From contig URVJ01000007.1 of assembly GCA_900551295.1 (NCBI GenBank), forward strand, positions 20,560-84,559: a stretch of DNA of 64,000 nt. Reading direction: 5' to 3'. The notes beneath the pieces are model-generated. The model was not told the DNA's origin and did no database searches. It was given only the letters and a program-made list of their open reading frames with translations. How positions within the stretch are numbered: the first letter of the stretch is position 1; each line of letters starts with the position of its first letter. The position numbers were made by a program, and so were the translations under genes. Shown here in pieces: positions 4,621 through 51,500 of the stretch. The stretch comes from an uncultured Eubacteriales bacterium. Lineage in GTDB: Bacteria; Bacillota; Clostridia; Oscillospirales; CAG-382.

Positions 4621-4655
4621 AAATATATGATTTTGCCGTATTTGTATTATTTTTT

Positions 4656-4686
4656 GTGCCGGAGTTGTTTCCGGCACTTTTTTTTG
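4656..4686 (+). terminator. Rho-independent terminator after mntP
   Basis: GTGCCGGA-gttgtt-TCCGGCAC hairpin followed by a T8 run. Confidence 0.75.
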
Positions 4687-4787
4687 TGAAATTCGGGCGA
4701 GAAATGAGTTGATAATCCAAGTCACGGTAAAAATTGTGCAAAATGCTGTTTTTTGTTGTATAAAGTGACGATGTTTGCATAACGGTA

Positions 4788-4816
4788 TTGAAAAAACGCA
4801 GGCAAAATGGTAATAT
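4788..4816 (+). promoter_or_regulatory. Candidate sigma-70 promoter for the SLH surface-protein gene
   Basis: TTGAAA-N17-TAATAT with TGg immediately upstream of the -10, about 95 nt before the 4910 start. Confidence 0.35.
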
Positions 4817-4909
4817 AACATTGTTTGAAATTTGTATTTGTTATGAATTATTTATGTATTATCGGTTCTCTGAATCTGTAATAAATACCAACAAGGAGAG
4901 AGTGAATAA

Positions 4910-7900: not shown

Positions 7901-9615
7901 AGTATCTCGTAGGCTCTTCAAAGTATACCGTAGACGGCACCGAAAAGGATCTCGGATACACGCTCTATCTCTCCGACGGACTTCCCATGATTTCGTTCAA
8001 GGCACTTGCCGAGGCTCTCGGATATACCTCCGAAGTCAAGGACGGAAACACATACGTAAAGACAACCCAGTATGATATTTATAAGTCTGTTGCAAACAGA
8101 GAAGTCGGCGACTGGGAATTCAATGACTTTGACACAGAGGGCTGGACTTCAACCCATATGTCGCTTGAAGTTAGGGACGGAGCAATGACAATGACCGTTC
8201 TCAGCGACAAGAACAACGACCCGATCATGACCCGTTCCCAAGAGACTAAGTTTGATTCAAAGCTCTTTAAGGAATTTGAAATCAGGATGCGCTATAAGTT
8301 CACCAACGGCGAAAAACAGAGCCTTACAATGTATTTCATCACCGACAGAAATTCTCAGTGGGACGAGGCAAAGACCATCAAGATTCCGCTTGAGAAGAAA
8401 GACACCGAAGGCGAATGGGAATATTATAAGGTAGACCTTACAAAGAACAGCGCATGGAAGAATACCATAACCAACCTCAGATTTGACCCGTTCAACTCTC
8501 CCGGATACATGGAGATCGACTACATGAGGTTCATTAAGGATCCCGATTATGTACCTTCCGAACTCCGTCCTTTTGAGATTGAAAACGGCAACGCAGAGGA
8601 TACATCCAATGCAACCGTATTCTACTCCAATAACGCAAAGATAACTATCGCCGAAGAACCCGGCAATACTTCAAACCACGTATGGTACGTAACTTCCGCT
8701 CCCGGAAAGAACTGGACATACTTCAGACAGGCTGCTCTCTTCAAGAAGGGCAAGAAGTATAATATCTCCTTTGACGTAAAACTTGTCGGAGATAATGCAA
8801 ATAAGGGGCTCAAAGAAGCAGTCTTCAATCTCAATATCAGATATCCCGAAACCGGAGCGCTCAATAACTTTGACCACCTTATAAAGGCATTCAAGGTTAC
8901 GACAGACGGCTGGACGCATGTTGAGGCTGAACACGTTGTCGCAAAGATGGACAGCTCGTCGGGACACGAATTTACAATCTATGCAAATCCTTCGGGAGAC
9001 GCTTCGTTCACCTATATGGTAGATAATATCGTAGTTGCCGAATCCGATTCCGGACTTGCGGTTGAAGATGATAAGAAGACAGAGCAGACAACCGAAACAA
9101 AGCCCGATACCAAAAAGGAAGAGGCAGTACAGGGCGAGATTCCCGCACTTACAGACGCAGGACTTCTTACCGGCGTAACTCCTTATTCCGATAACGCGGT
9201 TATTACAAGCGTTGACGATCCTAAAGAGGCAGGCAAAAAGGTTTACTGTGTGACACCTAAGGCTGGCGAAAAGAGATGGACGTATTTCAGAGCAAAAACA
9301 GACGCTTTTGAATCTGAGGCTACATATAAGTTCTCTTATGATGTGCTTGCCGTAAGTTCGGGAGCAAACACTTCCGGCTTTACAGCTCAGATCATGGCTA
9401 ACTTCAGATATAAGTCCGGAGATAAGAATGATCATGTTGTAAACCCGGTAAAGATAACTCCTTCCGAAGGCTGGATTCATGTTGAATTTGAATACAAGCT
9501 TGAAGCTGTTACAGATCCTCTCGCTACACAGGAATTTACTCTGTATACCAATCCTAACGGTGAAGATTCAGTAACTTACCTACTCAAGAATTTAAAGCTT
9601 GAGAAAAAAGCGTAA
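4910..9615 (+). pseudogene. SLH-domain cell-surface protein with GH99-like/WbsX-like hydrolase domain, stalk domain and two CBM-like C-terminal modules, split by a frameshift at about 6601-6657
   Basis: ORF 4910-6658 has a signal peptide plus SLH motifs (FKDVKNDAWYASEVKNAYELGFMNG...). Its frame ends at 6656-6658. The frame of ORF 6763-9615 is already open from 6601 and reads ...TAKANLDDYVVGLNICSLWRNGTHFGWSCITPYDEPKTVLGYYDEGMPESADWEIKYMVEHGIDF. That is a continuous domain that the annotated ATG at 6763 would cut in the middle. Downstream are WNEYGEGTYIMPS, a copper-amine-oxidase-N-like stalk segment and two roughly 150-aa CBM4/9/22-like repeats. Confidence 0.7.
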
Positions 9616-27326: not shown

Positions 27327-29396
27327 TTACTTTTTGCCGTTTTCTTCGGGCGTCGGGAAGATTACGAGAAAGCTCGATTCTCCGAAACGTTCGCTGAGAT
27401 TTAAGAAACCTTTTTCGTCAGCAGTGCAGGGTTCTTCCGAGGTGTATAAACCGTCTGAAACAATGCGTGCCGTGTAGTTTTTGCCCTTTTCAAAGCCGCC
27501 GATCTTCAGTCTTACTGCGTCGGAACAGCTTGCCGTGACGATGACGTTTTCCGCACCGAATAAAAATCCGTATGAGTTGGTGCCGAAGCCAATGTTTTTT
27601 ATTCCGGCATATCCCGTGTATTCTCCGAGATTGGGATCTGCCGTGAGAACGCTGCCGTCGGTATCTGCGCCGAAAAGACCGTATACAGCCATGCTTGCCG
27701 CGGCTCCGCACTCGGCATATCCGTTTACCGAAAGCGTTTCGGGACTTGAGATAAGCAGCTTTCCGTCAGTATAGCAGGCGGCAAAGTCCGTAAAGCGGTT
27801 CAAAAAGCTCTTTTTGGAAATTTTCGCACGCGCGGCAAGGTCATAGTATTCCGTAACCAGCGACGCGCCGCCGTTCTGCCAGTATTTTCCGAAAGCCGCG
27901 GTCGAAGATAACGGGAAGTTGCCGTTTACATAGTCCCACCAGCTATCGCTTGCATTTATCGTGGTGGAACGCGGAGCAAATCCGAACGCATATATGTCTG
28001 CACCTGTCGAAGTGTCGCTTGAAACTTCGGTCTTGCCGTCAATCCACGAAAGAATTGCGTCCGACGTCTTTTTGTCGGCAATGCCGGAGCTTATTGCCTC
28101 AAGATTGAGGAAAGTAAAACCGAGATCGTGATAAGAACCCGACGCGTCCTTTGCGCCTGCGTATCTCGAAGAAGATTCTCTGAAGAATGTCTGATTTATT
28201 GCGGTTTTGTTCTTTTCCGCAACCGCAGAGTATTCGTCAGCCTTTTCGGGCTGTCCCATAAGCGTGTAAAGCTTTGCAAGGTCGTTCATTGCCTCGTTGA
28301 AAGCTATGTTGCAGTATGCGTCGAGATAACCGAAACGGTGATTGAACCAGTAGTTTGAGCCTGCGCCGTTGGACTCTCCGCTGTTGCTTTCGGTGAGAAT
28401 GTATACGAGTCCGTCAGCTTCGTTGAAGCGTATTCCGCCGCCGTTGAGGTCGTTCTTGTCAAAGTAGTAGTTTACGGCTTTCTCTAACTTTTCGAGAACC
28501 GTAAGACCGTTAGATACGTCGAGTTTCGGCACGCTTGTCGTGTCCTTTTCGTAAAGGAAAGACGTGTCTGCCTCCCAAAGCGTGATTTCGCACACGGCTG
28601 AGATAAATCTCGAATTTGTGTCGTAAAGATAAAATCCGTTCTTTTCGGACTTCATGGAGCTTTCCGACGACCATATGTAGCCGTTGGAGAATATCGGATA
28701 GTCGCGCAGTATCTGTTTAAGTTCGTTTATATAGGTTTTGTCGGAGTACCAGGCGTATCTCTTTGCCTGCCAGAGGAAAGTTGACGGATCCGAACTTGAT
28801 ACCGGGAGTGAGAGAGAGGGATTTTTTGACAGTGCAAAGTCGTTTATAAGACAGTCAGCCGCTGATAAAAGCGCGTTTTCGTCAGACGAGTAGATGATTT
28901 TTCCGCTGCTGCTGAATTCGTCATATGCCGTGAGTATGCTTTGATCGACAATGTTCGGATAAAGATCGGGTTTCTTTGTGATTTTCTTAAATGCCGAAAC
29001 AAGAACCGCGATAACCGCGATCACTACTGCCGCAAAGCCGAGTATTATTGCCCATCCGCGTACAAGTCGCTTTATCTTTTTGATTTTTGCGCGTTTAATG
29101 CGTTCTTTTCGTCTAAGTACCTCTGCGTGCTTTGCACGGCGTTCGCGTGCCAGCATTTCGTTCTGTCTGATAAGGTCGGTTTCGCCTGTCTGACCGAACT
29201 GCCGGCTGTTGCCGTTGGGACGTGAAAACTGCGTTCTTGCACGCGAAGTGTTTGGATTTGAGTTTTGAATTGTATTTATGTTAATGTCGCGGCGCATATT
29301 TTCGGGATTGCCGCCGTAGCCGCGCGGCATATCTGACGTATTTTGAGGGTTGTGACGCGGCTCGCCGTTTTTGCTGTAATTGCCGTCGTTCTGCAA
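27327..29396 (-). CDS. Hypothetical single-pass membrane protein: disordered basic N-terminus, TM, large extracytoplasmic domain of unknown function
   Basis: Long ORF with TM segment GWAIILGFAAVVIAVIAVLVSAF. A TTG at 29396 lies 9 nt after AAGGAGG, whereas the track start at 29420 overlaps that RBS. No motif was recognised with confidence; an (alpha/alpha)6-like glycosidase fold is only a guess. Confidence 0.6.
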   Translation of the reverse strand: MQNDGNYSKNGEPRHNPQNTSDMPRGYGGNPENMRRDININTIQNSNPNTSRARTQFSRPNGNSRQFGQTGETDLIRQNEMLARERRAKHAEVLRRKERIKRAKIKKIKRLVRGWAIILGFAAVVIAVIAVLVSAFKKITKKPDLYPNIVDQSILTAYDEFSSSGKIIYSSDENALLSAADCLINDFALSKNPSLSLPVSSSDPSTFLWQAKRYAWYSDKTYINELKQILRDYPIFSNGYIWSSESSMKSEKNGFYLYDTNSRFISAVCEITLWEADTSFLYEKDTTSVPKLDVSNGLTVLEKLEKAVNYYFDKNDLNGGGIRFNEADGLVYILTESNSGESNGAGSNYWFNHRFGYLDAYCNIAFNEAMNDLAKLYTLMGQPEKADEYSAVAEKNKTAINQTFFRESSSRYAGAKDASGSYHDLGFTFLNLEAISSGIADKKTSDAILSWIDGKTEVSSDTSTGADIYAFGFAPRSTTINASDSWWDYVNGNFPLSSTAAFGKYWQNGGASLVTEYYDLAARAKISKKSFLNRFTDFAACYTDGKLLISSPETLSVNGYAECGAAASMAVYGLFGADTDGSVLTADPNLGEYTGYAGIKNIGFGTNSYGFLFGAENVIVTASCSDAVRLKIGGFEKGKNYTARIVSDGLYTSEEPCTADEKGFLNLSERFGESSFLVIFPTPEENGKK

Positions 29397-29524
29397 GGTA
29401 ATTGTCCTCCTTGTTTTCAAACTTTACATTTATATTTTATCATAACGCATGAGAGTTTTCAACAGTATATTTAATTAATATATAAATTTTGCTCTTTTTC
29501 GGTTTCTTTTGTTGCTAATGCTCA

Positions 29525-29553
29525 TTGACGTAAAAGGATAAATGTGGTAGAAT
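29525..29553 (+). promoter_or_regulatory. Candidate sigma-70 promoter upstream of the cobalamin riboswitch
   Basis: TTGACG-N17-TAGAAT. Confidence 0.5.
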
Positions 29554-29589
29554 ATGTTTGAAAATCGAATATTTGCACAATGTGTCGGA

Positions 29590-29785
29590 TATGCTGCATA
29601 AAAGGCATACCCGGTGAAAAGGGAACACGGTGTGAATCCGTGACGATACCAGTCGCTGTGTGCATCCGAAAGGAAAAATTTCCGTCGGTGAAAGCCGGTC
29701 ATTGGGAAACTGAGAAGGCAGGAGATTTTTTCGGCGCAGTTTGTCTGCGATAGGGTGTAAAGTCAAAAGACCTGCATTGATGCTT
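29590..29785 (+). promoter_or_regulatory. Cobalamin (B12) riboswitch aptamer
   Basis: Conserved core GGTGAAAAGGGAACACGGTGTGAATCCGTG...CCAGTCGCTGT...GCCGGTCATTGGGAA...AAGGC...AGTCAAAAGACCTGC matches the RF00174 consensus blocks from memory, including the B12-box-like AGTCAnAAGACCTGC 3' element. Confidence 0.8.
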
Positions 29786-30050
29786 TTTCGCACGTACCGC
29801 AAGCCGTTCCGGTGTCCGGCAGGGCAGGGAACTTAAAAAACGCTTGCTTTACAGAAAAAGTATTATCGGCTTCTTGCAGATTTTTTTCAGTATTCTTCAA
29901 GGGCTTTGTTGTTGCGCCGATTTGCAAAAGTCACAGGAATAGCTGCTGTGGTAAGTTTTGTTTGCTTGCCGCGGCGGCTTTTTTGTATGCGGCAAATTTA
30001 AGTTTGCAGTCAAATGATTGAATATAAAAAGGAAAGGAATTTCAAAAATC

Positions 30051-33000
30051 ATGACAAATCGCAAAAAAAGCTCAAAACTTCTGCTGATTTTTGCAGTCGG
30101 CATACTGTCGGCGCTGCTTGCATTTTCCGTAAGCGCAAAAGGCGGAACAATGAGCGGAGACGGAAGCCGTGACAATCCTTATCTGATTGACGACGCGGCG
30201 GACCTTATCGCATTCCGCGACGAGGTAAACGTTCAGACCGCAGACGCTGCAAGTACGCTCTGCGCAAAGCTGACAGCCGATATCGACATATCGGACGCGG
30301 CGTGGACGCCGATTGGAAATTCGGGTTACGCAACTCAGGGCTATGCCGGAGTGTTCGACGGAGACGGTCATAAGATAAGCGGACTGAAGATCAGTTCTTC
30401 CGCGTCAAACCAGGGTCTTTTCGGCTATCTCGGTCTTGACGGCAGCGGAACAAACCGCGCGCTGATAAAGAATCTTGCCGTTTCGGGAACCGTTACCTCT
30501 TCGGGTAACTATATCGGCGGAATTGCGGGACAGATGACGTCCGCCGAGATCGTAAACTGCTCTTTTTCAGGCAGCGTTTCATCAAGCAGAAAAAAAGGTT
30601 CGAATGTCGGAGGAATAATCGGATATATCAATAATACCGATAACACAGGAAAAAATCCGAAACCGAGAGCGCTCATCAGCGGCTGCGCAAACAGTGCGGA
30701 CGTATCTACCGACGCAAAAGGCGTTGCCGGAGGTATTGTCGGTTACGCAAAGTTTATAGATATAGAAAACTGCTATAATACCGGAGATATTTACGGAACT
30801 TCGCGTTCGGGCGGTATTGCGGGACAGATGCAGAACAAGGTAAACGCCTCGAACTGCTATAATATAGGTGCTGTTTCGGGTACTTCCACAAGCGCAGACA
30901 TTGCGGACTTTATCTATAAGGGTTCGGAACTTATTAACTGCCATTATCTTGTAAAGGCATTCGGAACAGGTGTGGGAACCGCCGACGCGGACTGCGCAAA
31001 GATTGAAAGTGCAGAAGGACTTTCTGAACTTCTCGGCGAAGCTTTTGTTCAGGATAAAGACGGCGTAAACGGCGGTTATCCGATTCTTGCATGGCAGGCG
31101 GGCTCGGCAGGAGAGGTTAAAAACCCCCGTCTTGAGCTTATGGGCAATACCGTACTTAAAGTGCTTGACGGATTCAATACGGCTGATTTTTCCGTAAAGT
31201 TTGCCGATACGGAACCCTCTCATATCAACTGGAGCGTTGTTTCGGGAGAAAACGTAATCTCGGTTATTTATCCCGTAAATCCCGACGAATATAATACTTC
31301 CGTTGTTATAAAGGCAATAAATCCCGGTAAAGCCGTAATACAGGCTGCAACGGATGACGAAAGCCTGAAAGTAAGCGCGTATATAACCGTTCTTCCCGAA
31401 ATCACAGGACGTGAAATCGAAGGAATTGTAGCCGCGGGAAACACCGTAAGCGCAAAGATCACGGTTCTCGGCGCAAAGCCTTACGACTATGATAACTACC
31501 CCGAACTTGTATTCCAGTGGAAATATTTAACAAGCGAAGATTATCTTTCGGGCAATACCGGTTTTAACAGCTATAAGAGCATAAGCGGCGCAAACGACCG
31601 TACATTTACCATTCCCGAAAGCCTTGTCGGAGATTATCTGTCGTATACCGTAATGCTCGGCAGCGAAAGTTTTATGCCGTCGTCGCCGTACCTTGTAAAA
31701 TCAAGCGACGAGTATAATGTTGAAGCCGACTCTGACGCACTTGTCTTTGATTTTGATACTATAAAGACGGATATGCAGCTTGAACTTGCTTTAAAAGGAG
31801 CAAACGGCAGCACAATAGAATGGACAAGCGATAACCGTGACGTAATAAATTCAGAAACCGGCGCTGTTGTTCTTCCCAAGACCGGAAAAGTTACCGTAAC
31901 TCTTACCGCAGTCTTAAAGAGTGGCGAGGCAGTCAAGACAAAGACCTTTACTTTTGAAGTATATTCGTTAAAGCAGACACAGATAGAAATTGCCAATATG
32001 AAAAAGAGACTTAAAAACGGCATAAAGTCTCTCGGAAATTTCTATAAACTCTATCCCGTATACGGAACAGACACAAATGTTCTCGAAATGCTCTGCGATG
32101 ATATAAAGAACAGCAAAGAGCCTGAAATGACAGCGGCAATCGAGAGCATTGAAGAAGTTTACGGCGGCGCGGGAATTGCAGAAAACGGAGATATAACATA
32201 TTTCTATGCAGATCCCAATAACGCACCCAACGTTCATAACGGTTCTTTCAGAGTAACATTTGTATTCTCGCTCGGCGGTGAAACACAGAGCCTTGAAGTG
32301 CCGGTTATAATACCGTGGAACGCAGAGCTTGTAAAACAGGCTATGACGGAGCAGATACTCCCCGAAATTGCACTTCCGTCGTATACCGAACAGAATATTT
32401 CACTTCCCGTGTGCGCCGATGGCAAACTCTGGGCGCTTGCAAGCTGGACTACCTCAGATGAAACTGCAGTAAGCATAAATACCGTCAAAAAGTCGGCGAA
32501 TGAAAGATTTTCACCCGATACCGGCATTATTTATCCCGGACTTGAAGAAAAACACGTAAAACTCACGGCGGCTGTAACATTCGGATTTACAAATGCCTCG
32601 ATAAATGAGCCTGAAATAGTTCTCTATAAGACTTTTGATGTAACTGTCGGAAAGATCGACGAGGATACCGCGGAGAAGATAAAGACCGACCTTGAAAAAA
32701 AGCTTGAAAACGGACTTGAAAAGGCAGGGCTCCGCGACGCCGCAACGGGAAAGGCTCTTGAAATAAACGACGGAGTTTATACCGCAGTCAACGATATACT
32801 CTATCCCACAACACGCGACTTTAAGATTGACGGTAAATATTATCCCGTAACCATAAAGAGCGATAATGAGGACGTAATTGTATCTCCCGACGCAAATAAC
32901 GCCGCAAGAACAACGGTTTACCGTCCTATGCCCGGAGAAGAGCCTGCAAAGGCAAACGTAACGCTTACAATTCTCGATAAATCGAGCGGAGTATCTGTTT

Positions 33001-34583
33001 CAAAGACTTTTGCCGTTGAAGTAAAGCCGCTTACGGATGAAGAGATCGAAAGCGAAAGAAAACTTCTCAAAAAAGTTTCCGAATCCGTATTCGACGGTAT
33101 AAAAGCAAGGAACAAGGAAACCGGCGATATTCGCTATGACCTTTCGGCATTTACCGAAGTATATGAGAATAACGGAAAGCTCGTCTTTGTATATTCAAAC
33201 GACAAAATGACGGGTTCGGGCATTGTTCCGACCGCGCTTGAAGGCTGGGAAGAACTTGAGGCATGGAGACTTTTCAGATCTTCCAATCCCGCAAGCATAT
33301 CTCACGAAAACCTTAAAGTAACAATTAACGATAAGGCAAAGGACGTAACTCTGACGACCGCCCTTTCGAGCGAAACACTCGGAAAATACGGCGAGCTTTA
33401 TAAGAAAAATCCAGTAAAGTACAAAAAGTACGAATCCGTCGCCGATCTTTACTATAATTTAGTTACATTAAATCTCACCGTGCGCGGAAAATCCACGCCT
33501 GCCGGAGCAAAGCCTCTCGGCGAGAGCGAAAAGATAACCGTAACCTTTAAGCTTCTCGGTGCGGACAAGAACGAGCTTATCAAAAAGACGACGCTTGCAA
33601 ACCTTGACGAAACAGTGACCGCGTTTGACGTGTTCAAGACCGTGCTTAAAGCCGAAAACTTCACGTATGAGGGTTCGGGCAGCTATGTTTCGGCAATTAC
33701 CGACGCAGACGGAAATAGACTCGGTGAGTTTGACTACGGAAAGTACTCGGGCTGGATGTATAAGGTCAACGGCAAGATACCCGATTATGTAATGACGGCT
33801 TGCGGACTCAAAAACGGCGACGATGTCGTAATGTTCTACACAAAGGATTATAACGAGCTGTTCACGAACTCCGGCAGCGGTTCTTCGGGTATGGGTTCTG
33901 ATAACGATACCAAAAAGGACAACGAAAAGTCAGACGGAAAGACGGATGAAAAACCGGCTGACGGCAATACCGAAAAAGATAATGAAACAAATCCCGGCAG
34001 CGAAAAGGCCGAAATAAAGTATTCCGACGTGACGGGACACTGGGCAAACGACGAAATAGCAAAGGTAAGCGGATCGGGACTCATGAACGGTGTTTCTGAA
34101 ACCGAATTTTCACCCGATACTACCCTTACAAGAGCAATGTTCGCGACGATTCTTTACAGGTTTGCTTCTGACGGAAACTCCGATGTAAATACCGAAAAGC
34201 AGGTATTTTCCGATGTTGCAGGGGACGCATGGTACTCGGCGGCTGTCGTATGGTGCGCGGACGGAAAAATAATCCTCGGTGTTGCTGAGAATACATTTGC
34301 ACCCGATAACTTCATCACTCGCGAGCAGATGGCGCTTATACTTTACAGATACGCACTGTCTCTCGGTGAAACCGAAAAGACGGATACGGAAAACCGGAAG
34401 CCTGCTTTCTCTGATACCGATACGCTGTCTGACGAGTCAAAAGCCGCAATCAAATGGGCGAGCGAAAACGGACTTGTAACCGGACTTCCCGACGGACGCT
34501 TTGCTCCGAAGGACAACGTAACCCGTGCGCAGTGCGCCGCAGTATTCGCAAGAGCACTCGGCTGCAAGGTTCTCGGCAAGTAA
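30051..34583 (+). CDS. Giant SLH-anchored surface protein: GLUG-motif region, Ig-like domains, DUF4430 (transcobalamin-like C-terminal) module, three C-terminal SLH domains
   Basis: Signal peptide MTNRKKSSKLLLIFAVGILSALLAFSVSA. Repeated GGIAGQM/GGIIGY/GGIVGYA GLUG motifs and a Big_2-like domain (VIKAINPGKAVIQAATDD). The DUF4430 signature is TVTFKLLGADKNE...TAFDVFKTVL...GSYVSAITD...YSGWMYKVNGKIPDYVMTACGLKNGDDVVMFYTKDY. Three SLH repeats (YSDVTGHWANDEI..., FSDVAGDAWYSAAV..., FSDTDTLSDESKAAIKWA...). ATG at 30051 is preferred over TTG at 30018. Confidence 0.85.
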   Translation: MTNRKKSSKLLLIFAVGILSALLAFSVSAKGGTMSGDGSRDNPYLIDDAADLIAFRDEVNVQTADAASTLCAKLTADIDISDAAWTPIGNSGYATQGYAGVFDGDGHKISGLKISSSASNQGLFGYLGLDGSGTNRALIKNLAVSGTVTSSGNYIGGIAGQMTSAEIVNCSFSGSVSSSRKKGSNVGGIIGYINNTDNTGKNPKPRALISGCANSADVSTDAKGVAGGIVGYAKFIDIENCYNTGDIYGTSRSGGIAGQMQNKVNASNCYNIGAVSGTSTSADIADFIYKGSELINCHYLVKAFGTGVGTADADCAKIESAEGLSELLGEAFVQDKDGVNGGYPILAWQAGSAGEVKNPRLELMGNTVLKVLDGFNTADFSVKFADTEPSHINWSVVSGENVISVIYPVNPDEYNTSVVIKAINPGKAVIQAATDDESLKVSAYITVLPEITGREIEGIVAAGNTVSAKITVLGAKPYDYDNYPELVFQWKYLTSEDYLSGNTGFNSYKSISGANDRTFTIPESLVGDYLSYTVMLGSESFMPSSPYLVKSSDEYNVEADSDALVFDFDTIKTDMQLELALKGANGSTIEWTSDNRDVINSETGAVVLPKTGKVTVTLTAVLKSGEAVKTKTFTFEVYSLKQTQIEIANMKKRLKNGIKSLGNFYKLYPVYGTDTNVLEMLCDDIKNSKEPEMTAAIESIEEVYGGAGIAENGDITYFYADPNNAPNVHNGSFRVTFVFSLGGETQSLEVPVIIPWNAELVKQAMTEQILPEIALPSYTEQNISLPVCADGKLWALASWTTSDETAVSINTVKKSANERFSPDTGIIYPGLEEKHVKLTAAVTFGFTNASINEPEIVLYKTFDVTVGKIDEDTAEKIKTDLEKKLENGLEKAGLRDAATGKALEINDGVYTAVNDILYPTTRDFKIDGKYYPVTIKSDNEDVIVSPDANNAARTTVYRPMPGEEPAKANVTLTILDKSSGVSVSKTFAVEVKPLTDEEIESERKLLKKVSESVFDGIKARNKETGDIRYDLSAFTEVYENNGKLVFVYSNDKMTGSGIVPTALEGWEELEAWRLFRSSNPASISHENLKVTINDKAKDVTLTTALSSETLGKYGELYKKNPVKYKKYESVADLYYNLVTLNLTVRGKSTPAGAKPLGESEKITVTFKLLGADKNELIKKTTLANLDETVTAFDVFKTVLKAENFTYEGSGSYVSAITDADGNRLGEFDYGKYSGWMYKVNGKIPDYVMTACGLKNGDDVVMFYTKDYNELFTNSGSGSSGMGSDNDTKKDNEKSDGKTDEKPADGNTEKDNETNPGSEKAEIKYSDVTGHWANDEIAKVSGSGLMNGVSETEFSPDTTLTRAMFATILYRFASDGNSDVNTEKQVFSDVAGDAWYSAAVVWCADGKIILGVAENTFAPDNFITREQMALILYRYALSLGETEKTDTENRKPAFSDTDTLSDESKAAIKWASENGLVTGLPDGRFAPKDNVTRAQCAAVFARALGCKVLGK

Positions 34584-39197: not shown

Positions 39198-39399
39198 ATA
39201 TATGTGTCCTCCGCTTTGCTTTTTTCTTTATAATACCATAAACAGCTGTGATTTTCCATGACAATACTGCCGTAAAAATTTAAAATCCTGCACTATTTTT
39301 ATTTTTTGCAAAAATGACGGAACTTGTCGGAAAACTGTACGTCATACAGAGTGTAAAGCAAGTAACATAAAGCAAAATTCAATGAAAGCAGGTAACTTT

Positions 39400-41499
39400 A
39401 TGAAAAAATTAATGATCGCGGCAATAGTAGCCGCAATGCTCATCTCAAATGCCTCGGTATATGCCGATGACGCGGCTGAAGTAAAGCCGGCAAACGATTC
39501 TCAGACGGCAGAGCAGAACGAAGTGAAAGAAAAAATACCTTATTACGTATACGATAAAGCAACCGTAAAGTCGGTTGAAAACGGCAGCATTAACTGCACG
39601 ACAAACGACGATAAAGAAATCTCTCTCATACTTGATGTTTCCGAAGATACGCTGATACTGGACAATAACGGAAATAAGATTAGCCTTTCGGATCTCAAAG
39701 AGGGAACGGTAATATACGCATACGACAGTCCGTATAACGCAAGAATATTGATATACCCCGCAACCTTTAAGCCTTATGTGATAGTTGCTGCGACTGATGA
39801 AAACGTAAATTTCTGCCTTGACGCTTTTTCAAAAGATCCCGATTCAAAGGAAATAAGATATGTTTCCGACGGAGGAAAGCTTGCGGTAAATATTTCGGAC
39901 GAAACAGAGTTTAAGGGATACGACGGAAGCGAGATCACCGATAAAGATCTTGAAAGCAGAATCGCACTTATAACCTACACCGATTCTACAAGAAGTATTC
40001 CGGCGATAACAACCGCGGAAAAAGTAACAATTCTCGGAGCCGTTCCGGTCGAGCTTCCCGATCTTACCGAGGAAAGACCGGTAGTTTCCGAAGATACTCC
40101 GACGGTTCTGCCCGATCTCTCGGAAGAAAGACCTGTTGTTACGGAGTCTGAAACCGATAAAACAATAAAGGTTGCCTTTGACGGAGAAAAGATGAATTTC
40201 GACGTCGATCCGATAATCGAAAACGGCAGAACGCTCGTACCGTTCAGAGCAATATTTGAAAAACTTGACTGTGCGGTATCATATTCCGAAACAGACGGCG
40301 GAAAATTTGTCGAGGCGCAGAGAGGCGACGATGTTGTTCTTCTTGAAATCGGCAAGGACACAATGCTCGTAAACGGTAAGGAAGTAAAGCTTGACGCACC
40401 GGCAAAAATAGTTGACGGAAGAACTCTCGTTCCTCTGCGTGCCGTAAGCGAGAGCATGGACTGCACCGTTGATTGGCTTGACGATGTTAAGACCGCGTCC
40501 ATTCATAAAAAACACGGTCAGCACATAATAGACTCCGGACGTATCGAAAAAAGCATAACCGACAGCGACGGCACGGTTCTGATGAATATAAGCGCCGTAT
40601 ATCCGATAATCGCCGATGAAACCGGAAGCGACGCGTTTATTGCGGACATAAACAAGAGTTATAAGGAAAATGCCGAAAAGTATGTTTCGAATATTGAAAA
40701 AACTTTCACTAAAGATGACACTGCCGAAATGCGCATGGCAATGGGAGAAAATTTCCGTCCTATGCAGTTTACGCTTACATTTAAGGTAAACACCGACAGA
40801 AAGAATCTCCTTTCGATCACTAATACCGATTATCAGAACGCAAACGGCGCGCACCCGAATACGCAGAGAACTTCACGCACTTTCCAGACTCTCATGAATA
40901 AAGAGCTTGCGCTTACAGATGTCTTTGACGCCGAGCAGGACGCTGTCAATAAGACGGTATACGATACATTTAAGGCAAAACTCGAAAAAGAAGTTGAAGA
41001 ATACAGTGAAGAAAACGCAAAGGAGCTTGAAAAAGAGCTTGCAAACGTAAACTTCTATCTTACCGATAACAGCGTTGTAATGTACTTCAACCCTTATCAG
41101 ATCCTCCCGTATGCATTCGGCGCTCCGAGTGTCGAGCTTAAATACGGTGAAAAGGACAGCCCCGTAAAGCTTGACCTTTCGGAAGCAAAGCTTGACGCAC
41201 TTGAAATAGTTCTTGACGGAAATCCCACAACCGGTTTTACATGGGAGGCTGTCGAGGCGGATTCCGAAATTGTGGATATAAAGAGCGAGTATAAGCAGGA
41301 CGAGGCGGCTGAGGATATGGCAGGCGTCGGCGGAAAGTATACTTTCACCGTAACCGGAAAATCAAACGGAAACGCTCAGATAAAGCTCTGCTATATGCGT
41401 TCTTTCGAGGGCGAAGGCTCTATTCAGAAAACAGTCATCGTCAAAGTGTACGTTGACGAAAACGGCAAGGTCACCGTTCTTGACCGTACAGAAAAGTAA
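39400..41499 (+). CDS. Secreted multidomain protein: stalk domains (copper amine oxidase N-like), DUF4163/DUF3298, C-terminal chagasin-like (I42) peptidase-inhibitor domain
   Basis: Signal peptide MKKLMIAAIVAAMLISNASVYA. Stalk motifs GRTLVPFRAIFEKLDCAV and GRTLVPLRAVSESMDCTV. A DUF3298-like block (YQNANGAHPNT...YFNPYQILPYAFG). I42 motifs NPTTGFTWE, GVGGKYTF and LCYMRSFEG. Confidence 0.75.
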   Translation: MKKLMIAAIVAAMLISNASVYADDAAEVKPANDSQTAEQNEVKEKIPYYVYDKATVKSVENGSINCTTNDDKEISLILDVSEDTLILDNNGNKISLSDLKEGTVIYAYDSPYNARILIYPATFKPYVIVAATDENVNFCLDAFSKDPDSKEIRYVSDGGKLAVNISDETEFKGYDGSEITDKDLESRIALITYTDSTRSIPAITTAEKVTILGAVPVELPDLTEERPVVSEDTPTVLPDLSEERPVVTESETDKTIKVAFDGEKMNFDVDPIIENGRTLVPFRAIFEKLDCAVSYSETDGGKFVEAQRGDDVVLLEIGKDTMLVNGKEVKLDAPAKIVDGRTLVPLRAVSESMDCTVDWLDDVKTASIHKKHGQHIIDSGRIEKSITDSDGTVLMNISAVYPIIADETGSDAFIADINKSYKENAEKYVSNIEKTFTKDDTAEMRMAMGENFRPMQFTLTFKVNTDRKNLLSITNTDYQNANGAHPNTQRTSRTFQTLMNKELALTDVFDAEQDAVNKTVYDTFKAKLEKEVEEYSEENAKELEKELANVNFYLTDNSVVMYFNPYQILPYAFGAPSVELKYGEKDSPVKLDLSEAKLDALEIVLDGNPTTGFTWEAVEADSEIVDIKSEYKQDEAAEDMAGVGGKYTFTVTGKSNGNAQIKLCYMRSFEGEGSIQKTVIVKVYVDENGKVTVLDRTEK

Positions 41500-44917: not shown

Positions 44918-47900
44918 ATGAAAAAGTTTTTTGCACTTTTAATGGTATGTGCAATTTCACTTCAATATGTGGCTATTGCAGAAGATACAATAATTTCAGA
45001 AGTAAATGAAAAAAGTGAAAGTATAGAAATTACACAAAGCGAAGAGAATAATGAACTTACTCGGGATAACTATGCCGAAAATGTCTCATATAATAATGAA
45101 GACAGTTTTTATGAGTATGCCGATGACGAAAGCACATCTGAAACGGATGTTTCCCAAAACGATAAAAATTTTGATATGAGTCCGGAAAAGGATGATCTAA
45201 ATTTACAGCAGGAATTTAATGTTCTGTCAGAACTGCAAAATAACGCGTTTGTAGAAATCAATAATTCAATATGGTTTGATTCCGAAAAGACCCGCCCTTT
45301 TGATACCGGATATGAGCTATACTCCGAAACCGAATTTATAAGAGAAACTGAATATTCGGGAAATCTTTTTCTTTCCGAAGAGGCATATGACGGAAAATTT
45401 TCACTTTGTTTGAAAAGAACAACAGAATCCTGCGAAAGCACCTTTCCTATAAAGAATACGGTGGTAGTTTCTTTAAAACATAATAATTCACAGTATCCGA
45501 AAGTCAATACCATTTCTCTCTATATAAAACCGTTAAGCGGTGCTGAAACAATTAATTTTTATGTTGAAGATGCGGAAATAACTGAAAGCCGAATAAAAAT
45601 CATATCCGACTATAATAAAGACGGAGATTTTAAAGTCGGAGAAGATATGTCGCAAGGCAGGTGGAATGAGATAAAACTTGATCTCACAAGACTGCAAAAC
45701 GGCGATGAAATATCTGCTGTAAAAAATCTGTATGTTTCAATAAATGCGGGTTCGGCATGGTTAATAGACAACGTAAGCGGTGATTTTCACGAATATGAAT
45801 CTGCAAATGTTGATTTAGGACGTTTTGCAAAGAAAAATCTTATGTATAACGAAAACAAATTGACATTTGTAACAGACGATTCGGGAAACTATAATACGAA
45901 ATCTGTTATAACGATAGCAAAATTTGATTTGTCAGACAGAGTTTCTTCAATAGATATCAGCGATTCGTATATTCCGACCTATGTTTCGCATGAAAACTCA
46001 AATTATAAAAACTATTTTCCCGATGATATTCTCAGCAACCCAAACTATTGGGAAGAGAATTCAAAGGTTTCATTTGTAAATGAAAATGACGTTTGTAAAC
46101 TGAGAATGAGCAGCGGTGCAACCGCAAAACTTAATCTTTCGTCGTTGCCGTTATATAATGAGTATAAGAATTCTCAAAGCAGATTTCGTGTTGAAATAGT
46201 CCTTAGTAATGAAACCACAGGATCTTCTATATACGTAAAGTTAAATTCAAGCCAAGGATTGAGTTTATCAAGCGGCAATGTGTCAAAAGGCAAAACAGGA
46301 GTGTTTTCCGAAATTGTAACAAACAATGAAGAGTGGCTTTCTTTTGTACCCAGCGGCACGTGCAGCATTACATCATTAAGGTTTGTAAAACTGCCGAATG
46401 TTGATACAAGTGCAACTGATGCGATTCCAAACAATATGCTTTTGGATTTTGAAGTGTTTTCAGATTCGACTTTTGAAGAAGTTTACGGTGAAAACACTCA
46501 CTTTCCCGGAATTGATGAAGAATATACCGGTGCACCGATTGCTTATCAATCCTCCTCAGCTTCAAAAACGATAAATATTTCCGGCGATGCAAATGATATT
46601 CTTGTTGTAAGAGTCGTAAATCCGAATTTATACTCAAATAATTGTTCAATACATGCCGGGAAAACGAAGTATCTATCATACGGCGACAACGAATATGTGT
46701 TTACCGGGACAGAATTTGAAAAAATCACGTTTACCAACCGAAATCAAGTTGGTTATCCGCCCATGCTTGTTGAAATACGTAAATACTCTGATACAGCTTA
46801 CAAGTCTTCTTCACTGCATGAAAAAGAAGTTGACCTGAATGGTGAAGTCAATTACATTTACAGTAAAGATTCATCAAAAATCTATTACGTCGATGCCAAT
46901 AATTACGATTTATGTATCATGGATGCCGACAGCGGAGAGAAACGTATTATAAATAATGTTTCGGCAAAAGGGGTGGCAGCTGTTTCTCCGAACGGGAAAA
47001 TTATAGCTTATGCCGATGATGATAGTGTGTATTGCCTGTATAACATTGAGACAAACAAAAAAACTATATTAGGAAAGTATTACGGTATAACACATGTAAG
47101 CGACGAAGGCGAATACAGCGGCTTAAAAACACAGTATCAAATGTTTTCAAGCGGTGTTGAAGGAACTACAAGTATTTCCGGAAGCACATATTGTTTTAAT
47201 GATACATTGGATTTGCTTTCAGTTGTAAATAAAAATAAAATTCAAGTACAACGTAAAAAGAACGGTGAATTTGAAGATCTTTGCAGTTTGGATTTTGGGA
47301 CAGACACCGTAACCGGAGCGGTGTTTTCAAGAAATGACCGTCTCTTTGTACATGCAAAAGGGACTTTATGGGAGATAAATCTGGATAACGGTGATAAAAG
47401 GCAAGTCGGGTTGGTATCCGGAAGTATTCTTTCCGTAACCGATGATAACTGTTTTGTTTTTGATAATTCGTCTTATCTGACTTTGTATAATTCGGATAAC
47501 GATAGCCGTGATAACATTTACGTAAGACCGGATTTAAACTATGGTGTGTACTATGACAGCGCACGATCAAGATTAATATATACGACTTCCGATTCAAAGT
47601 TGTGTACTTACAGTTTTATTCCAAACGATCGCATAATAAAAGGGTTTATTTCATTTGACAACTATAACTGGTATTCGTATAAGAATCTTGAATGGAAATA
47701 TGTCGGAAATACAACAATGCTAGATGATGATGAGTTTTTCGATTACGGCATGAGTAATGGTGAAATATCAGCGCTTTCGGAAAGTGATTTTCAAAAATTG
47801 TACAATATCTACGGAACAGAAACGACAGTTTTCGGTATCAGTATTGCGCTTAGATTTTCAGCAAATTCCGATAAGTTTATTCCGTCAATAAATTCTGTAA

Positions 47901-48541
47901 ATATAAGAACTGTTGTACAAAATGAAAACAATAATATATACGGTGCCCACGGTGAGTTTTTCAGCAAATCAGATTATCATAAAATAAATGCCGTATATCC
48001 TATTGAAAGCAAACCAAACTACGCTGAGAACTGCTATTTAATAGCACTGGGAAACGAGTGTTTGTTTACTTACAAAAACAATAATTTTGTCAAGATTAAC
48101 TGTGACGTCGACGATCTTTTGGCAGATATGCCTGGCAATTGGATGAAAATTAAACAACAGGGTATGTCGGCTGTTGAAATATCTGCTATTCCGGGTGAAA
48201 AAATGACTTCCTTATTTTCGGGCACGGAGTATGGGAATACAGGATTTACTATTATTAACTGTATAAAAACAACCGGTAACACAACCAAGGAAGTCAGTGT
48301 CGAATATAAATTAAATGCAGAAAAGAAGTATTTGTTTGATGGTGCTTCAGGGCTGAAACTTCATTTTATTGACGGTGTTGAAAAAAGCATTTCGGGATTG
48401 TCATCCGAAGATATACAGCAGTTTTTTACATGGCTTGAAAAAAGACAAAGCGGAATAGGAAGCATATATTATGTTTTTGACGTATCCGGAAATAAGTTTT
48501 TTGTAAATTATTACAGTATACAGTCCGTAGAGGTATTATAA
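44918..48541 (+). CDS. Large secreted protein of unknown function (1207 aa) with a TolB/PD40-like beta-propeller-like central region
   Basis: Signal peptide MKKFFALLMVCAISLQYVAIA and RBS AAGGAG. The central segment SKIYYVDANNYDLCIMDADSGEKRIINNVSAKGVAAVSPNGKIIAYADDDSVYCLYNIETNKK resembles PD40 repeats. The rest is unrecognised. The stop lies 24 nt before the rhs ATG. Confidence 0.7.
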   Translation: MKKFFALLMVCAISLQYVAIAEDTIISEVNEKSESIEITQSEENNELTRDNYAENVSYNNEDSFYEYADDESTSETDVSQNDKNFDMSPEKDDLNLQQEFNVLSELQNNAFVEINNSIWFDSEKTRPFDTGYELYSETEFIRETEYSGNLFLSEEAYDGKFSLCLKRTTESCESTFPIKNTVVVSLKHNNSQYPKVNTISLYIKPLSGAETINFYVEDAEITESRIKIISDYNKDGDFKVGEDMSQGRWNEIKLDLTRLQNGDEISAVKNLYVSINAGSAWLIDNVSGDFHEYESANVDLGRFAKKNLMYNENKLTFVTDDSGNYNTKSVITIAKFDLSDRVSSIDISDSYIPTYVSHENSNYKNYFPDDILSNPNYWEENSKVSFVNENDVCKLRMSSGATAKLNLSSLPLYNEYKNSQSRFRVEIVLSNETTGSSIYVKLNSSQGLSLSSGNVSKGKTGVFSEIVTNNEEWLSFVPSGTCSITSLRFVKLPNVDTSATDAIPNNMLLDFEVFSDSTFEEVYGENTHFPGIDEEYTGAPIAYQSSSASKTINISGDANDILVVRVVNPNLYSNNCSIHAGKTKYLSYGDNEYVFTGTEFEKITFTNRNQVGYPPMLVEIRKYSDTAYKSSSLHEKEVDLNGEVNYIYSKDSSKIYYVDANNYDLCIMDADSGEKRIINNVSAKGVAAVSPNGKIIAYADDDSVYCLYNIETNKKTILGKYYGITHVSDEGEYSGLKTQYQMFSSGVEGTTSISGSTYCFNDTLDLLSVVNKNKIQVQRKKNGEFEDLCSLDFGTDTVTGAVFSRNDRLFVHAKGTLWEINLDNGDKRQVGLVSGSILSVTDDNCFVFDNSSYLTLYNSDNDSRDNIYVRPDLNYGVYYDSARSRLIYTTSDSKLCTYSFIPNDRIIKGFISFDNYNWYSYKNLEWKYVGNTTMLDDDEFFDYGMSNGEISALSESDFQKLYNIYGTETTVFGISIALRFSANSDKFIPSINSVNIRTVVQNENNNIYGAHGEFFSKSDYHKINAVYPIESKPNYAENCYLIALGNECLFTYKNNNFVKINCDVDDLLADMPGNWMKIKQQGMSAVEISAIPGEKMTSLFSGTEYGNTGFTIINCIKTTGNTTKEVSVEYKLNAEKKYLFDGASGLKLHFIDGVEKSISGLSSEDIQQFFTWLEKRQSGIGSIYYVFDVSGNKFFVNYYSIQSVEVL

Positions 48542-48565
48542 AAATTAAATTCAGAGGGCGTAAAT

Positions 48566-51500
48566 ATGAAGCGTATTCTTAATATAACAGTATTGATGGT
48601 TATTGCAATACTGATAACGATGTCCGTATATTCTCAAACACAGGATGAAATAATTGCCGAAGCAGTGTGCGGACAAAGAATAGCACAATATGATGTTAAG
48701 CTGAATTCTCCGTTTGTAAAGGAACGCAGAGGCGAAAGCGAAACTGTGAATCCCGAAACCGGGAACGTTTCATATACGCTCTCTTTGTTTAACTTGAATG
48801 CACGAACTTTTGACGAAACATTATCTTTGACATATAACAGTGCATCAGCAAAGCTTAAACAGGAATCATATTGCAATACAGGTGTTGCTTTACACAATAT
48901 CAATGAAAATTTCACAGACAAAGAGATTGCAAAAGCAAATTTTGCAGTTGGCTGGAAATTCAATATCCCTTTTGTTGAAAGTATGTATAATACAACATTT
49001 GTTCATATGCCGGACGGGACAGTATATTTGGGAGATGCATCAAGCGATACAGGGCTTAGCGGTTATATGCTTAAAAATGTAACTTTCAAAAAAAGCGATT
49101 CAGGTTATCTTTTGAATTATCTTGACGGTACAGTGTATAAATTTGATACTGATGGCTTTTTAACAGAAAAATCCGATCGTAACGATAATTATGTACAGTA
49201 CAATTGGAATAAATCGTTAACTCCTTATGTTCTTGAAAAAATCACATCATGTACAGGACAAAGTATCAGTTTTAAATATTTAGATTCCGCCGTTGAGATT
49301 ACGTTAAACGGCAGAAAAGTTACTTTGGGAGTAGAAAAGCAATCTGATGCCGACAAAATTCCTTTTCTGACATATTTTATTGATGCCGTAAACAGAAAAA
49401 CATCCTTTGAATACTCTCAAAAGACAATAGATTATGCACTTGTTTTGGATTCGGAAAAAATGGATATAAACTATTATCCGTTGACATCAATAATATATAA
49501 TACCGGACTTAAAACAATTTACAAATACGATACTGCAAAAAAATTCTCCGGAAACGGATATATGTCATATCTAAAGCTTTCGGAAAGATATGATATCAGT
49601 AATTTGGAAATGGTTAACCGTCAACAGTATTTCTATAACGGCGAGCCTGACGGATACCCGAAATATTCTTCCGGATATATTCCGTCAGATTATAAGTATT
49701 CTGCTGTTATTATCAATCAAGATAGCAAACGTGAATTGATCTCATATAACAGTGTGCATGATATTTCCGAAAGGGAAATATCTGTCGGAAATAAACCTCA
49801 AAGCAGATTGTCGTATAAATATGACAAAAGAAACAGAATGCCTGTGCAAATAGTGTCTGAAATGTTCGGAAATTCTGGGAACGACAGAGCAGTATACTCT
49901 GAATTTGTGTATAACGATCGCGGCGAACTTTTGTCATATGACACATATGATAATATTTCTGACAAAGGTAAACAGAAAAAGGAATACCTATACAGTAACT
50001 TTTACGGAATAAATACTTACTTAAAATATAAAACAGACAAAGCAACAACCGTTGAAGTAAAATCCGATACTGACAGCAACGGAAAGAACATTGAAAAAAC
50101 GCAAATATTCGTAAACGGAAACCTTGTCAAAACTATACGTTACAAATATGATGATTTCGGAAACAACGTATATATAAAAAAACAGACAGATAATGACACC
50201 TATAAAACAGAAAAGTTTGTTTTTACCGATAAGACAGGATATGCTTATCCAGAACAGCACATAATATGCGGTGTTGAGGATACCGACGGCGATACATTTG
50301 ATGTATATGAGGAATTTGAATATGATTTTTTCGGAAATATAATTTCATATACAGATGCCTGCGAAGGAAAGACAATATATGAATATAATAATCTCGGAAA
50401 TCCGGTAAAGCAAATACTTCCTAACGGAGGAATAAGAACTGTTTTATATGACTATAATAAGAATACATTAAAAACATCGGATGCACTCGGAAATACACTT
50501 TTATATATGTATGACCCATTAGGAAGACTTGTTTTTGTTAAAGACGGGAAAGGAAATATTCTTACTCAAAAAGAATATGCACCGACGGGATTACTTGAAT
50601 GTGAGACTGACGCTGTCGGAACAAGTTTTCACTACACATATGACGGATTTAACCGTGTAAGCGGCATATCTGCAAAGGATATGACCGGAAAAATTCTTTC
50701 TTTTACAAGCTATTCTTATGATGAAGCATATATTTTTGACGGGAAAACTTATTCAAGGTTTGAAACATCTCTAAAGGGAGAAACCGGAGAATATAAAACG
50801 GCATATCTTTTCGATTTTCTCGGACGTCAGCGTTTGTGCGAGAACGGAAATGGTGAAAACAAACGCATAACAACATATGAATACGATTATGCCGGAAACA
50901 ATATCCGGACGGTTTTACCTGACGGCAGCATTACCGATTGCACATATAATGCTTTCGGAAATATGCTTTCAAGCACGCGTGACGGTGTATCGGAATACTA
51001 TACGTATGACCTTTTGGGCAATATGAAAAGCCATACTGACGGTGAAGGTAATACCGTAACATCTGATTATAATTCTCTCGGATTGAATCTCAAAAATACG
51101 CTCCCCTATAACGGCGGCAATTCTTTTTCCGTAACAAAAAATTACTATGATCCTTGCGGAAGAGTTACAAAACGCACAGACGCAGAGGGAAATTCAAAAA
51201 AGTATTTTTATGATAACAGCGGCAATCTTGTCAGCTGTTTATACGGTGACGGTATTACAACCTATGAATATGACGCTGAAAATCGTATTATTTCCATGAG
51301 CACAGGGAAAGCCGGTAATCTCCATACTCAGCATTATGAGTATGACAGTTTCGGCAATCTTGTCAAGAGTACGGATGAAATGGGATTTTCTCAAAGCTAT
51401 ACGTATGATTTGAACGGCAATGTGTTAAGCTGTATTGACAAGAACGGAAATATCGTATATAATACATACGACGGATTAAACAGAATAATCCGCACGTCAA

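Follow-up and report, generated by a model that had tools for sequence, protein, structure and literature searches.

The 64-kb window analysed here (64,000 nucleotides of contig URVJ01000007.1, assembly GCA_900551295.1, from an uncultured Eubacteriales bacterium) contains, between positions 29525 and 34583, a cobalamin riboswitch followed by a single gene for a giant secreted protein, which carries one transcobalamin-like DUF4430 module and three SLH domains that anchor it to the cell wall. The original prediction, made from the letters of this DNA, read the unit as B12-repressed display of a corrinoid-binding module. The aptamer, the gene and its domains are as that reading described them. 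The leader, however, carries an expression platform laid out like that of the one riboswitch proven to be activated by corrinoids, and we consider it a little better than an even bet that a wall-anchored corrinoid binder is made in response to corrinoid and not repressed by it.

The riboswitch leader and its expression platform

The leader is made up of the following elements (window positions, + for the forward strand):

29525-29553, +: promoter-like site TTGACG-17-TAGAAT with extended TG (consensus scan, 10 of 12 matches; a consensus match only)
29563-29793, +: cobalamin riboswitch aptamer (RF00174), full length with a peripheral extension; homologous aptamers lie 5' of 46 of 58 orthologs
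29647-29652, +: aptamer loop L5, UACCAG, placed by the aptamer alignment; its CAG (29650-29652) is the aptamer side of the kissing loop
29778-29930, +: insert of about 150 nucleotides between P1 and P13, two hairpins in minimum free energy and centroid folds
29931-29951, +: P13 hairpin, UCACAG [GAAUAGCUG] CUGUGG, parsed blind to kissing-loop complementarity
29941-29984, +: intrinsic terminator, a 16-bp stem (29941-29979) followed by U6 to 29984 (terminator scan and folds)
30030-30039, +: ribosome-binding site AGGAAAGGAA, about 12 nucleotides 5' of the ATG, read from the sequence

The aptamer, first placed at 29590-29785, matches RF00174 over the full model (1-189) with 53.8 bits, above the gathering score of 31.5 (E 1.4e-10), and is the sole Rfam match across the window. 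The sigma-70-like promoter site would put the transcription start a few bases 5' of it, and 257 nucleotides separate its end from the start codon. The first hairpin of the insert (about 29778-29865) starts within the P1 3' strand, overlapping the end of that strand, and shows by eye compensatory changes between loci (e.g. GAUGCUUUUUC/GAAAAAGUAUU vs GAUGUUAUCUU/AGAGAUAAUGUU); the whole insert is missing from a clade with short leaders (L008 type). The ribosome-binding site is not sequestered, being unpaired or weakly paired in the fold.

While no convincing terminator had at first been recognised in this leader, the 16-bp terminator and the P13 hairpin before it form a complete expression platform. 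The terminator stem is predicted at about -25 kcal/mol and P13 at -5.3 kcal/mol. The 5' arm of the terminator includes the entire 3' arm of P13 together with the last three bases of its loop, L13, and P13 and the terminator are thus mutually exclusive. These three bases, CUG (29943-29945), pair with the CAG of L5, at the same three L5 positions that are the functional kissing-loop bases of Priestia megaterium metE, where they were mapped by mutagenesis (PMC10653944).

This layout was found in 38 parsed leaders among 46 aptamer-positive species, from gut Oscillospiraceae and other Clostridia and including Flintibacter muris. The P13 3' arm lies inside the terminator 5' arm in every parsed leader, the terminators 3' of the aptamer having predicted energies of -14 to -36 kcal/mol, and the platform is kept across clades of very different leader length. 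The parser relied on stem pairing and terminator overlap and used no relation to L5. The last three bases of L13 were Watson-Crick complementary to the last three of L5 in 35 of 39 automatically parsed leaders, and in 38 of 39 once three mis-parses had been corrected by eye, the L5:L13 pairings seen being CAG:CUG, CUG:CAG, CCG:CGG and CGG:CCG. In a fixed-format alignment of both segments the middle pair was CG in 13 leaders, AU in 8, UA in 6 and GC in 1, and was unpaired in none; the presence of all four Watson-Crick pair types between L5 and L13 marks a kissing loop. In the formal count every cell was paired, and two-sided changes occurred in 4 of the 5 P13 stem pairs. The covariation score was 0.556 vs 0.268 in shuffles that ignore phylogeny, the leader sequences being related; none of 500 shuffles reached 0.556 and every shifted register scored lower. 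In close relatives the difference can be one base, with compensation: L024 has GGAACACUCUG (L13 ...CUCUG) with L5 UACCAG, and L010 and L020 have GGAACACUCAG (L13 ...CUCAG) with L5 UAACUG, compensating the difference.

When 35 whole leaders were folded as ligand-free ensembles, the strand common to the two structures was in the terminator with a median probability of 1.0 (1.00 in the window) and in P13 with a probability of about 0. Any other upstream partner for the terminator 5' arm was likewise at about 0 in these ensembles. A duplex prediction of this arm against all upstream sequence gave no conserved alternative antiterminator, its matches lying at inconsistent positions and vanishing in the ensembles. 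A pairing of L5 (UACCA) with UGGUA in the terminator arm was rejected because it does not covary with L5, UGGUA being kept where L5 differs. In silico, the default ligand-free state of the leader is OFF. Since that default is termination, the conserved, covarying P13 and L13 would act only by blocking the terminator when ligand is bound. P13 itself could have an effect only through stabilisation by the kissing loop.

The sign of regulation can be predicted by comparison with riboswitches of proven behaviour. Nearly all tested corrinoid riboswitches repress (PMC10653944), and the only one proven to be corrinoid-activated is that of Alkalihalobacillus halodurans cobT (Procknow et al. 2023, PMC10653944). 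In cobT, as in those synthetic activators that work, P13 has its 3' side in common with the terminator's 5' side, and the P13 stabilised by the kissing loop is the antiterminator; in repressing corrinoid riboswitches P13 and the terminator coexist, and the antiterminator consists of the P13 3' side and the terminator 5' side (PMC10653944). Our parser recovers the overlap layout in the published cobT leader, with UGAGG[CAUGGCAUAC]CCUCA over its terminator, and the published platform sequence, UGAGG[CAUGGCAUAC]CCUCAGCUU...GGGGUUUUUU, has the same layout as the window. The repressing layout of the P. megaterium metE type is not what the window contains: here the P13 3' arm is identical, not complementary, to the terminator 5' arm.

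As a control sample we took 109 riboswitches from metagenomes, all sharing this P3-P4 core. Overlap together with a kissing loop was present in three (L148, the identical L172, and L130, the leader of an ortholog of the window gene, the last by eye) and in none of the remaining 105 or so classical riboswitches; one further control, L163, has a related L5, and no terminator was found in it. The five downstream open reading frames checked among the controls encode two CbiK-type lipoproteins, CobO, one unassigned product and, behind L148, a Big_3/fn3 protein. A repressing layout is seen in L098, where L13 (CGAG), in a separate hairpin, is complementary both to L5 (CUCG) and to the terminator 5' arm (CCUCG). 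Because the platform of the window matches the proven activator and not the repressors, activation is predicted, and we judge corrinoid-dependent activation to be clearly likelier than the repression first proposed.

Some of these leaders deserve mention in their own right. L098, L113, L087, L097 and L164 are classical repressing riboswitches with L5 ACUCG that lie 5' of CbiK-type cobaltochelatase lipoproteins with a long N-terminal extension; in L098 the terminator 5' arm (CCCUCG) mimics L5, and L13 (CGAG) is able to pair with either. L148 (core 318-345, +) and the identical L172 carry an ON-type platform, CACAG[GAAAACUCUG]CUGUG, over a terminator, with L5 UAACAG. This platform precedes a secreted protein of 644 residues that has Big_3 and fn3 domains but lacks DUF4430, and this type of switch may control other surface proteins too. 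At L004:5560-6000 and in L025, about 450 nucleotides of structured, common sequence separate the riboswitch terminator from the start codon.

The wall-anchored DUF4430 protein

The gene and the parts of its product are:

30051-34583, +: coding sequence, 1510 amino acids, single-gene unit (ATG at 30051, stop at 34581-34583; open reading frame list and translation)
30051-30137, +: signal peptide, residues 1-29, with a basic N-region and a hydrophobic core, ending ...SVSA (by inspection only)
30147-31130, +: GLUG-repeat head, residues about 33-360 (two Pfam Glug matches)
31770-31964, +: aBig_2 Ig-like domain, residues 574-638 (PF20578, 57.3 bits)
31968-33500, +: stalk, residues 640-1150, repeated helix plus beta-sandwich units (AlphaFold2)
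33531-33842, +: DUF4430 module, residues 1161-1264 (PF14478, 48.2 bits vs a cut-off of 23.8; Pfam span 1190-1264)
33858-34020, +: low-complexity linker rich in S, G, D, K and E (translation; predicted local distance difference test score, pLDDT, below 50 after residue 1273 or so)
34023-34565, +: three SLH domains, a non-covalent wall anchor (three PF00395 matches, 104.9 bits)

An in-frame TTG lies upstream of the ATG, at 30018. The N-terminus, MTNRKKSSKLLLIFAVGILSALLAFSVSA, reads by inspection as a signal peptide and has no lipobox cysteine, and the GLUG, Ig-like and three SLH domains claimed from the translation were all recovered by Pfam. Residues 33-297 of the GLUG head match PDB 3n6z, a 'putative immunoglobulin A1 protease', in phmmer, and residues 1328-1501 align with the SLH region of Bacillus anthracis Sap. 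The AlphaFold2 model of residues 640-1290 (mean pLDDT 89.3) is a string of helix and beta-sandwich units followed by a beta-grasp domain. With the whole 651-residue model, Foldseek returned only cadherin or S-layer (SbsB) domain strings, which fits a stalk.

The DUF4430 module, in which the peptide GWMYKVNGKIPDYVMTACGLKNGDDVVMFYTKDY had been singled out, has SGW-Y-VNG as its invariant motif. Modelled alone (residues 1150-1280, pLDDT 88.6), it has the order strand-strand-helix-hairpin-strand; the beta-hairpin inserted behind the helix is the defining feature of the transcobalamin-like SLBB clade (Burroughs et al. 2007, PMC1796856). All 19 of its significant Foldseek matches in the PDB are haptocorrin, transcobalamin, intrinsic factor, the lone transcobalamin beta-domain (apo and with cyanocobalamin, CNCbl) or 3u7z, which is the structure of a Ruminococcus gnavus DUF4430 protein; 4kki, 4zrp, 5no0, 5np4, 2pmv and 3u7z reach a probability of 1.00, with TM-scores of at most 0.68 on the target. 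The claim that the module is transcobalamin-like is thereby borne out by the model, whose matches in the B12 carrier proteins are to their beta-domains. DUF4430 is the only module of a ligand-binding type in the protein, and it most likely binds a corrinoid. About 55 disordered residues separate it from the SLH anchor, and it therefore adjoins the wall rather than sitting at the tip.

Orthologs and genomic neighbourhood

Relatives of the protein number thousands, the closest 120 having the same architecture at 42-49% identity. The family occurs mainly in metagenome-assembled genomes of Oscillospiraceae and other Clostridia, one of which, a Hadza-gut 'Eubacteriales' genome (L009), is about 93% identical to the window; cultured carriers are Flintibacter muris (DSM 110149, L035), Oscillibacter valericigenes, Lawsonibacter, Hornefia and a Paenibacillus. 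In seven fetched ortholog loci the flanking genes were unrelated in each, which suggests a self-contained single-gene unit, and RF00174 scored above threshold in five of the seven. A scan of one genome per species gave 76 further loci, which were screened by nhmmer and Rfam. Among 58 full-length orthologs from species-representative genomes, 46 are preceded by a canonical aptamer (scores reaching 71 bits), 7 by a divergent short one and 5 by none that was detected; most loci that are riboswitch-negative at the Rfam gathering score carry the divergent form. An aptamer 5' of 53 of 58 orthologs despite unrelated flanks is a link beyond chance, and the giant SLH-anchored DUF4430 family is near-universally linked to a riboswitch.

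This link also extends to relatives with other N-termini. Eight riboswitch-preceded relatives were scanned, in which the N-terminal part consists of Flg_new repeats, is lacking altogether (proteins of 373-390 residues) or is an alpha/alpha-toroid; DUF4430 was present in all eight and three SLH domains in seven, L061 being the exception. As DUF4430 and SLH are kept while the N-termini vary, the corrinoid link is tied to the wall-anchored DUF4430 module. The earlier idea of a corrinoid-linked, SLH-anchored surface protein gains support from both observations.

Several of these loci have peculiarities of their own. The divergent short aptamer, as at L002:5741-5959 and L002:4174-4392 (RF00174 22.8 bits, below threshold), apparently has no P5/L5 hairpin; it replaces the canonical one in a single clade, often with two copies per locus, and was also seen in L039, L041, L046, L052, L054, L055, L056, L064, L048, L076, L078 and L083. 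In L002 a 390-residue protein with DUF4430 and three SLH domains (4435-5607) has its own aptamer and lies directly 5' of the giant ortholog; tandem pairs in other SLBB operons were noted by Burroughs et al. (PMC1796856). L083:2482-6984 and L084:3487-5601 join an alpha/alpha-toroid (SQHop_cyclase/Prenyltrans) to DUF4430 and SLH, reproducing a transcobalamin-like alpha-plus-beta layout; a canonical-type aptamer lies 176 nucleotides upstream in L084, and the aptamer of L083 is divergent.

As originally stated, the riboswitch lies upstream of a single gene rather than a transporter or cobalamin synthesis genes: no btu, ECF or cob gene lies beside it or elsewhere in the window. None of the neighbours (shikimate-pathway enzymes, a 697-residue membrane protein, Fe-ADH, a glycine transporter and GDPD) is linked to B12. 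The 697-residue protein (27327-29420, -), encoded divergently, consists of a cytoplasmic N-terminus of low complexity, a single transmembrane helix and an extracellular part of about 550 residues, and gave no Pfam or NCBIfam match. It was considered as an alpha-domain partner and rejected, having no family match and not being conserved beside orthologs. An operon with the downstream Fe-ADH, glycine transporter and GDPD genes was also discarded; the arrangement is not kept at other loci, and a promoter-like site intervenes.

Elsewhere in the window, a 1207-residue open reading frame without family match (44918-48541, +) is followed by a 1630-residue RHS-repeat protein with a C-terminal DUF4474 (48566-53458, +), and the region 44918-53458 looks like a polymorphic-toxin locus. 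A 705-residue protein (39382-41499, +) combines Cu_amine_oxidN1, PdaC, DUF3298 and a chagasin-family (I42) peptidase inhibitor, and a 950-residue protein (6763-9615, +) combines a WbsX-like glycosyltransferase with CBM_4_9 and Cu_amine_oxidN1. A second SLH protein (4910-6658, +, 582 residues), with its SLH domains at the N-terminus, comes just before the 950-residue one, and an SLH-based surface layer seems to be present in the organism.

A proposed mechanism and its place among known systems

The scheme that best explains the leader would run as follows. With no ligand, the terminator at 29941-29984 would form and transcription would halt before the gene. With corrinoid bound, the CAG of L5 and the CUG of L13 would pair and lock P13; the locked P13 would withhold its 3' arm from the terminator, and RNA polymerase would read into the gene. 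The product would be exported and held to the wall by its three SLH domains, with the probably corrinoid-binding DUF4430 module near the wall and the Ig-like stalk and GLUG head beyond. A corrinoid binder would thus be displayed when the cell already contains corrinoid. Such ON logic fits a protein that retains or hoards cobamides at the wall or buffers their uptake, or one whose surface function requires a corrinoid; starvation-induced scavenging does not fit an ON-type switch. It is tempting to speculate that a widespread natural class of corrinoid-activated riboswitches drives wall-anchored transcobalamin-like proteins, which Gram-positive gut bacteria would display when replete so as to hoard or retain cobamides or deny them to competitors, although we put this broader proposal slightly below even chances.

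Several observations weigh against induction of a corrinoid binder. On the RNA side, (i) P13 is weak beside the terminator and the kissing loop has just 3 bp, (ii) about 150 nucleotides lie between P1 and P13 in the clade of the window, (iii) the 100% pairing of P13 is partly due to the construction of the parser, the kissing-loop complementarity alone being independent of its criteria, (iv) 5 of 12 synthetic designs built on the overlap rule failed to activate (PMC10653944) and (v) 7 of the 58 orthologs have a divergent aptamer and 5 have none detected. On the protein side, no PDB chain of transcobalamin or DUF4430 was reached by phmmer with the module or by the family profile, giving no residue mapping. 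A toroid or prenyltransferase domain is absent from the window protein (Pfam on the whole protein and the model of residues 640-1290, residues 1-640 being covered by Pfam only). Induction by the vitamin would also be unusual for a presumed capture protein, by analogy with the surface B12 binders of Bacteroides, which are encoded in B12-repressed operons.

This last point is part of the case for classical repression, in which corrinoid would favour the terminator and a capture protein made under B12 scarcity would feed a transporter encoded elsewhere. The record of tested corrinoid riboswitches, almost all of them repressors, is on its side, as are the strength of the terminator and the prediction of Burroughs et al. 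that extracellular transcobalamin-like domains scavenge B12 (PMC1796856). Repression, however, requires an antiterminator in the ligand-free state, and no partner for the terminator 5' arm other than P13 was found: the ligand-free ensemble is fully terminated and duplex matches elsewhere fall at inconsistent positions. In addition, the terminator stem itself contains the P13 3' arm and the L13 bases that covary, so that kissing loop and terminator are incompatible, and the layout of the repressing control riboswitches is missing here. We therefore regard repression as unlikely, if still the most serious competitor. Nor can the pattern readily be put down to relatedness among the leaders or to a decaying riboswitch, with constitutive attenuation at the terminator or another promoter in command. 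In its favour are the relatedness of the sequences, which the shuffle controls leave out of account, and the five orthologs in which no aptamer was detected. Against it, L024 and the pair L010 and L020 have nearly the same L13 context, and the one base in which they differ is matched by L5; all four Watson-Crick types occur with zero mismatches, aptamers score up to 71 bits and the platform survives very different leader lengths; this explanation seems to us highly improbable.

A different possibility accepts the switch and changes the function: DUF4430 may bind another tetrapyrrole (heme or a corrinoid precursor), or the protein may be mainly an adhesin or an S-layer-associated protein that uses a corrinoid as cofactor or structural ligand and would for that reason be produced only when this cofactor is at hand. 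More than 1100 of the 1510 residues fall in the GLUG head and the Ig-like stalk, parts of the kind typical for adhesins, DUF4430 stands beside the anchor and not at the tip, ON logic is expected for a cofactor-dependent function, and an ON-type leader also precedes the Big_3/fn3 protein of L148, which lacks DUF4430. A transcobalamin-like pair in Latilactobacillus sakei has moreover been argued to take up heme, a further point against corrinoid binding by the module; the basis of that proposal, however, is docking together with uptake phenotypes rather than a measurement of binding. What the eight scanned relatives have in common is DUF4430 (with SLH in seven), not head or stalk, the minimal versions of 373-390 residues contain nothing else, and the versions with an alpha/alpha-toroid reproduce the layout of transcobalamin. 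This alternative is in our view improbable, rather more so than repression, and we retain corrinoid-induced display of a corrinoid binder as the best explanation of the whole.

Each component of the system is of a known kind: the RF00174 aptamer, the DUF4430 module of the SLBB clade and the SLH anchor. B12 scavenging by bacterial extracellular transcobalamin-like domains was itself already proposed in 2007 (Burroughs et al., PMC1796856), and a 2026 review calls Gram-positive extracellular cobamide handling 'entirely uncharacterized'. In the literature we found no experimental corrinoid-binding data for any bacterial DUF4430 member, no report connecting SLH or DUF4430 proteins with cobalamin riboswitches and no second activating corrinoid riboswitch. 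What is new is the near-universal riboswitch link of the giant SLH-anchored family, a platform of predicted activating type backed by natural compensatory variation in dozens of species, and the prediction that B12 induces display. This prediction is directly testable, since at least one carrier, Flintibacter muris DSM 110149, has been cultured and a Bacillus subtilis reporter system exists. If it holds, the family would be the first candidate wall-anchored cobamide binder in Clostridia, and its leaders would be only the second natural activating corrinoid riboswitch after cobT, making such switches common in nature and not a lone oddity. Some bacteria would then increase their capacity to bind B12 at the surface when the vitamin is abundant, a B12 economy opposite to the starvation-induced capture of Bacteroides and Escherichia coli that would bear on hoarding and cross-feeding in gut communities, which are shaped by cobamide competition. 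Dozens of natural ON-switch sequences with compensatory variants would also become available as biosensors.

Among known riboswitches the closest counterpart is A. halodurans cobT (PMC10653944), which has an RF00174-type aptamer, an L5-L13 kissing loop, and a P13 whose 3' arm lies in the terminator 5' arm; in both, a short P13 of 5-6 bp closes a loop of about 9-10 nucleotides, acting as antiterminator in cobT and, by prediction, here. The two differ in their target, a biosynthesis gene in cobT vs a surface protein here, in the kissing loop, 4 bp with a bulge vs 3 contiguous bp at the 3' end of L13, and in the insert of about 150 nucleotides between P1 and P13 in the clade of the window. The cobT riboswitch prefers cobinamide (PMC10653944), and it is a single characterised case, whereas here at least 38 leaders show the layout. 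Repressing riboswitches (P. megaterium metE and the controls linked to CbiK and CobO) share the aptamer family, the same three L5 positions and the terminator output, but in them the P13 3' side or L13 is complementary to the terminator 5' arm, whereas here these are the same bases.

On the protein side, the module resembles the beta-domain of transcobalamin, intrinsic factor and haptocorrin and the SLBB clade (PMC1796856) in its beta-grasp fold with a hairpin insert after the helix, in being extracellular and in its fusion to Ig-like domains, as predicted in 2007 (PMC1796856). It departs from that clade in having an SLH anchor, rather than LPXTG or no anchor, and no transporter operon of the CbiO/CbiQ type. 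The window protein is not a two-domain carrier of the transcobalamin type because it has no alpha-domain, the alpha/alpha-toroid that in such carriers sandwiches the corrinoid with the beta-domain. The analogy first drawn with Bacteroides holds for the role but not for fold or anchoring, and probably not for the sign of regulation. BtuG, BtuH and BtuJ are surface corrinoid binders of gut bacteria under riboswitch control, and in BtuH2, too, Ig-like domains precede a C-terminal binding domain. Their folds (a beta-propeller, the BtuH domain and a jellyroll) are unrelated to DUF4430, and the window protein has neither a lipobox cysteine nor, in Pfam, a beta-propeller, BtuH or DUF4465 domain. The Bacteroides proteins are held by a lipid anchor in the outer membrane and encoded with BtuB/BtuFCD, in operons that are B12-repressed (BtuJ being reported as constitutively high), vs the wall anchoring, the single-gene unit and the predicted activation by corrinoid of the system described here.

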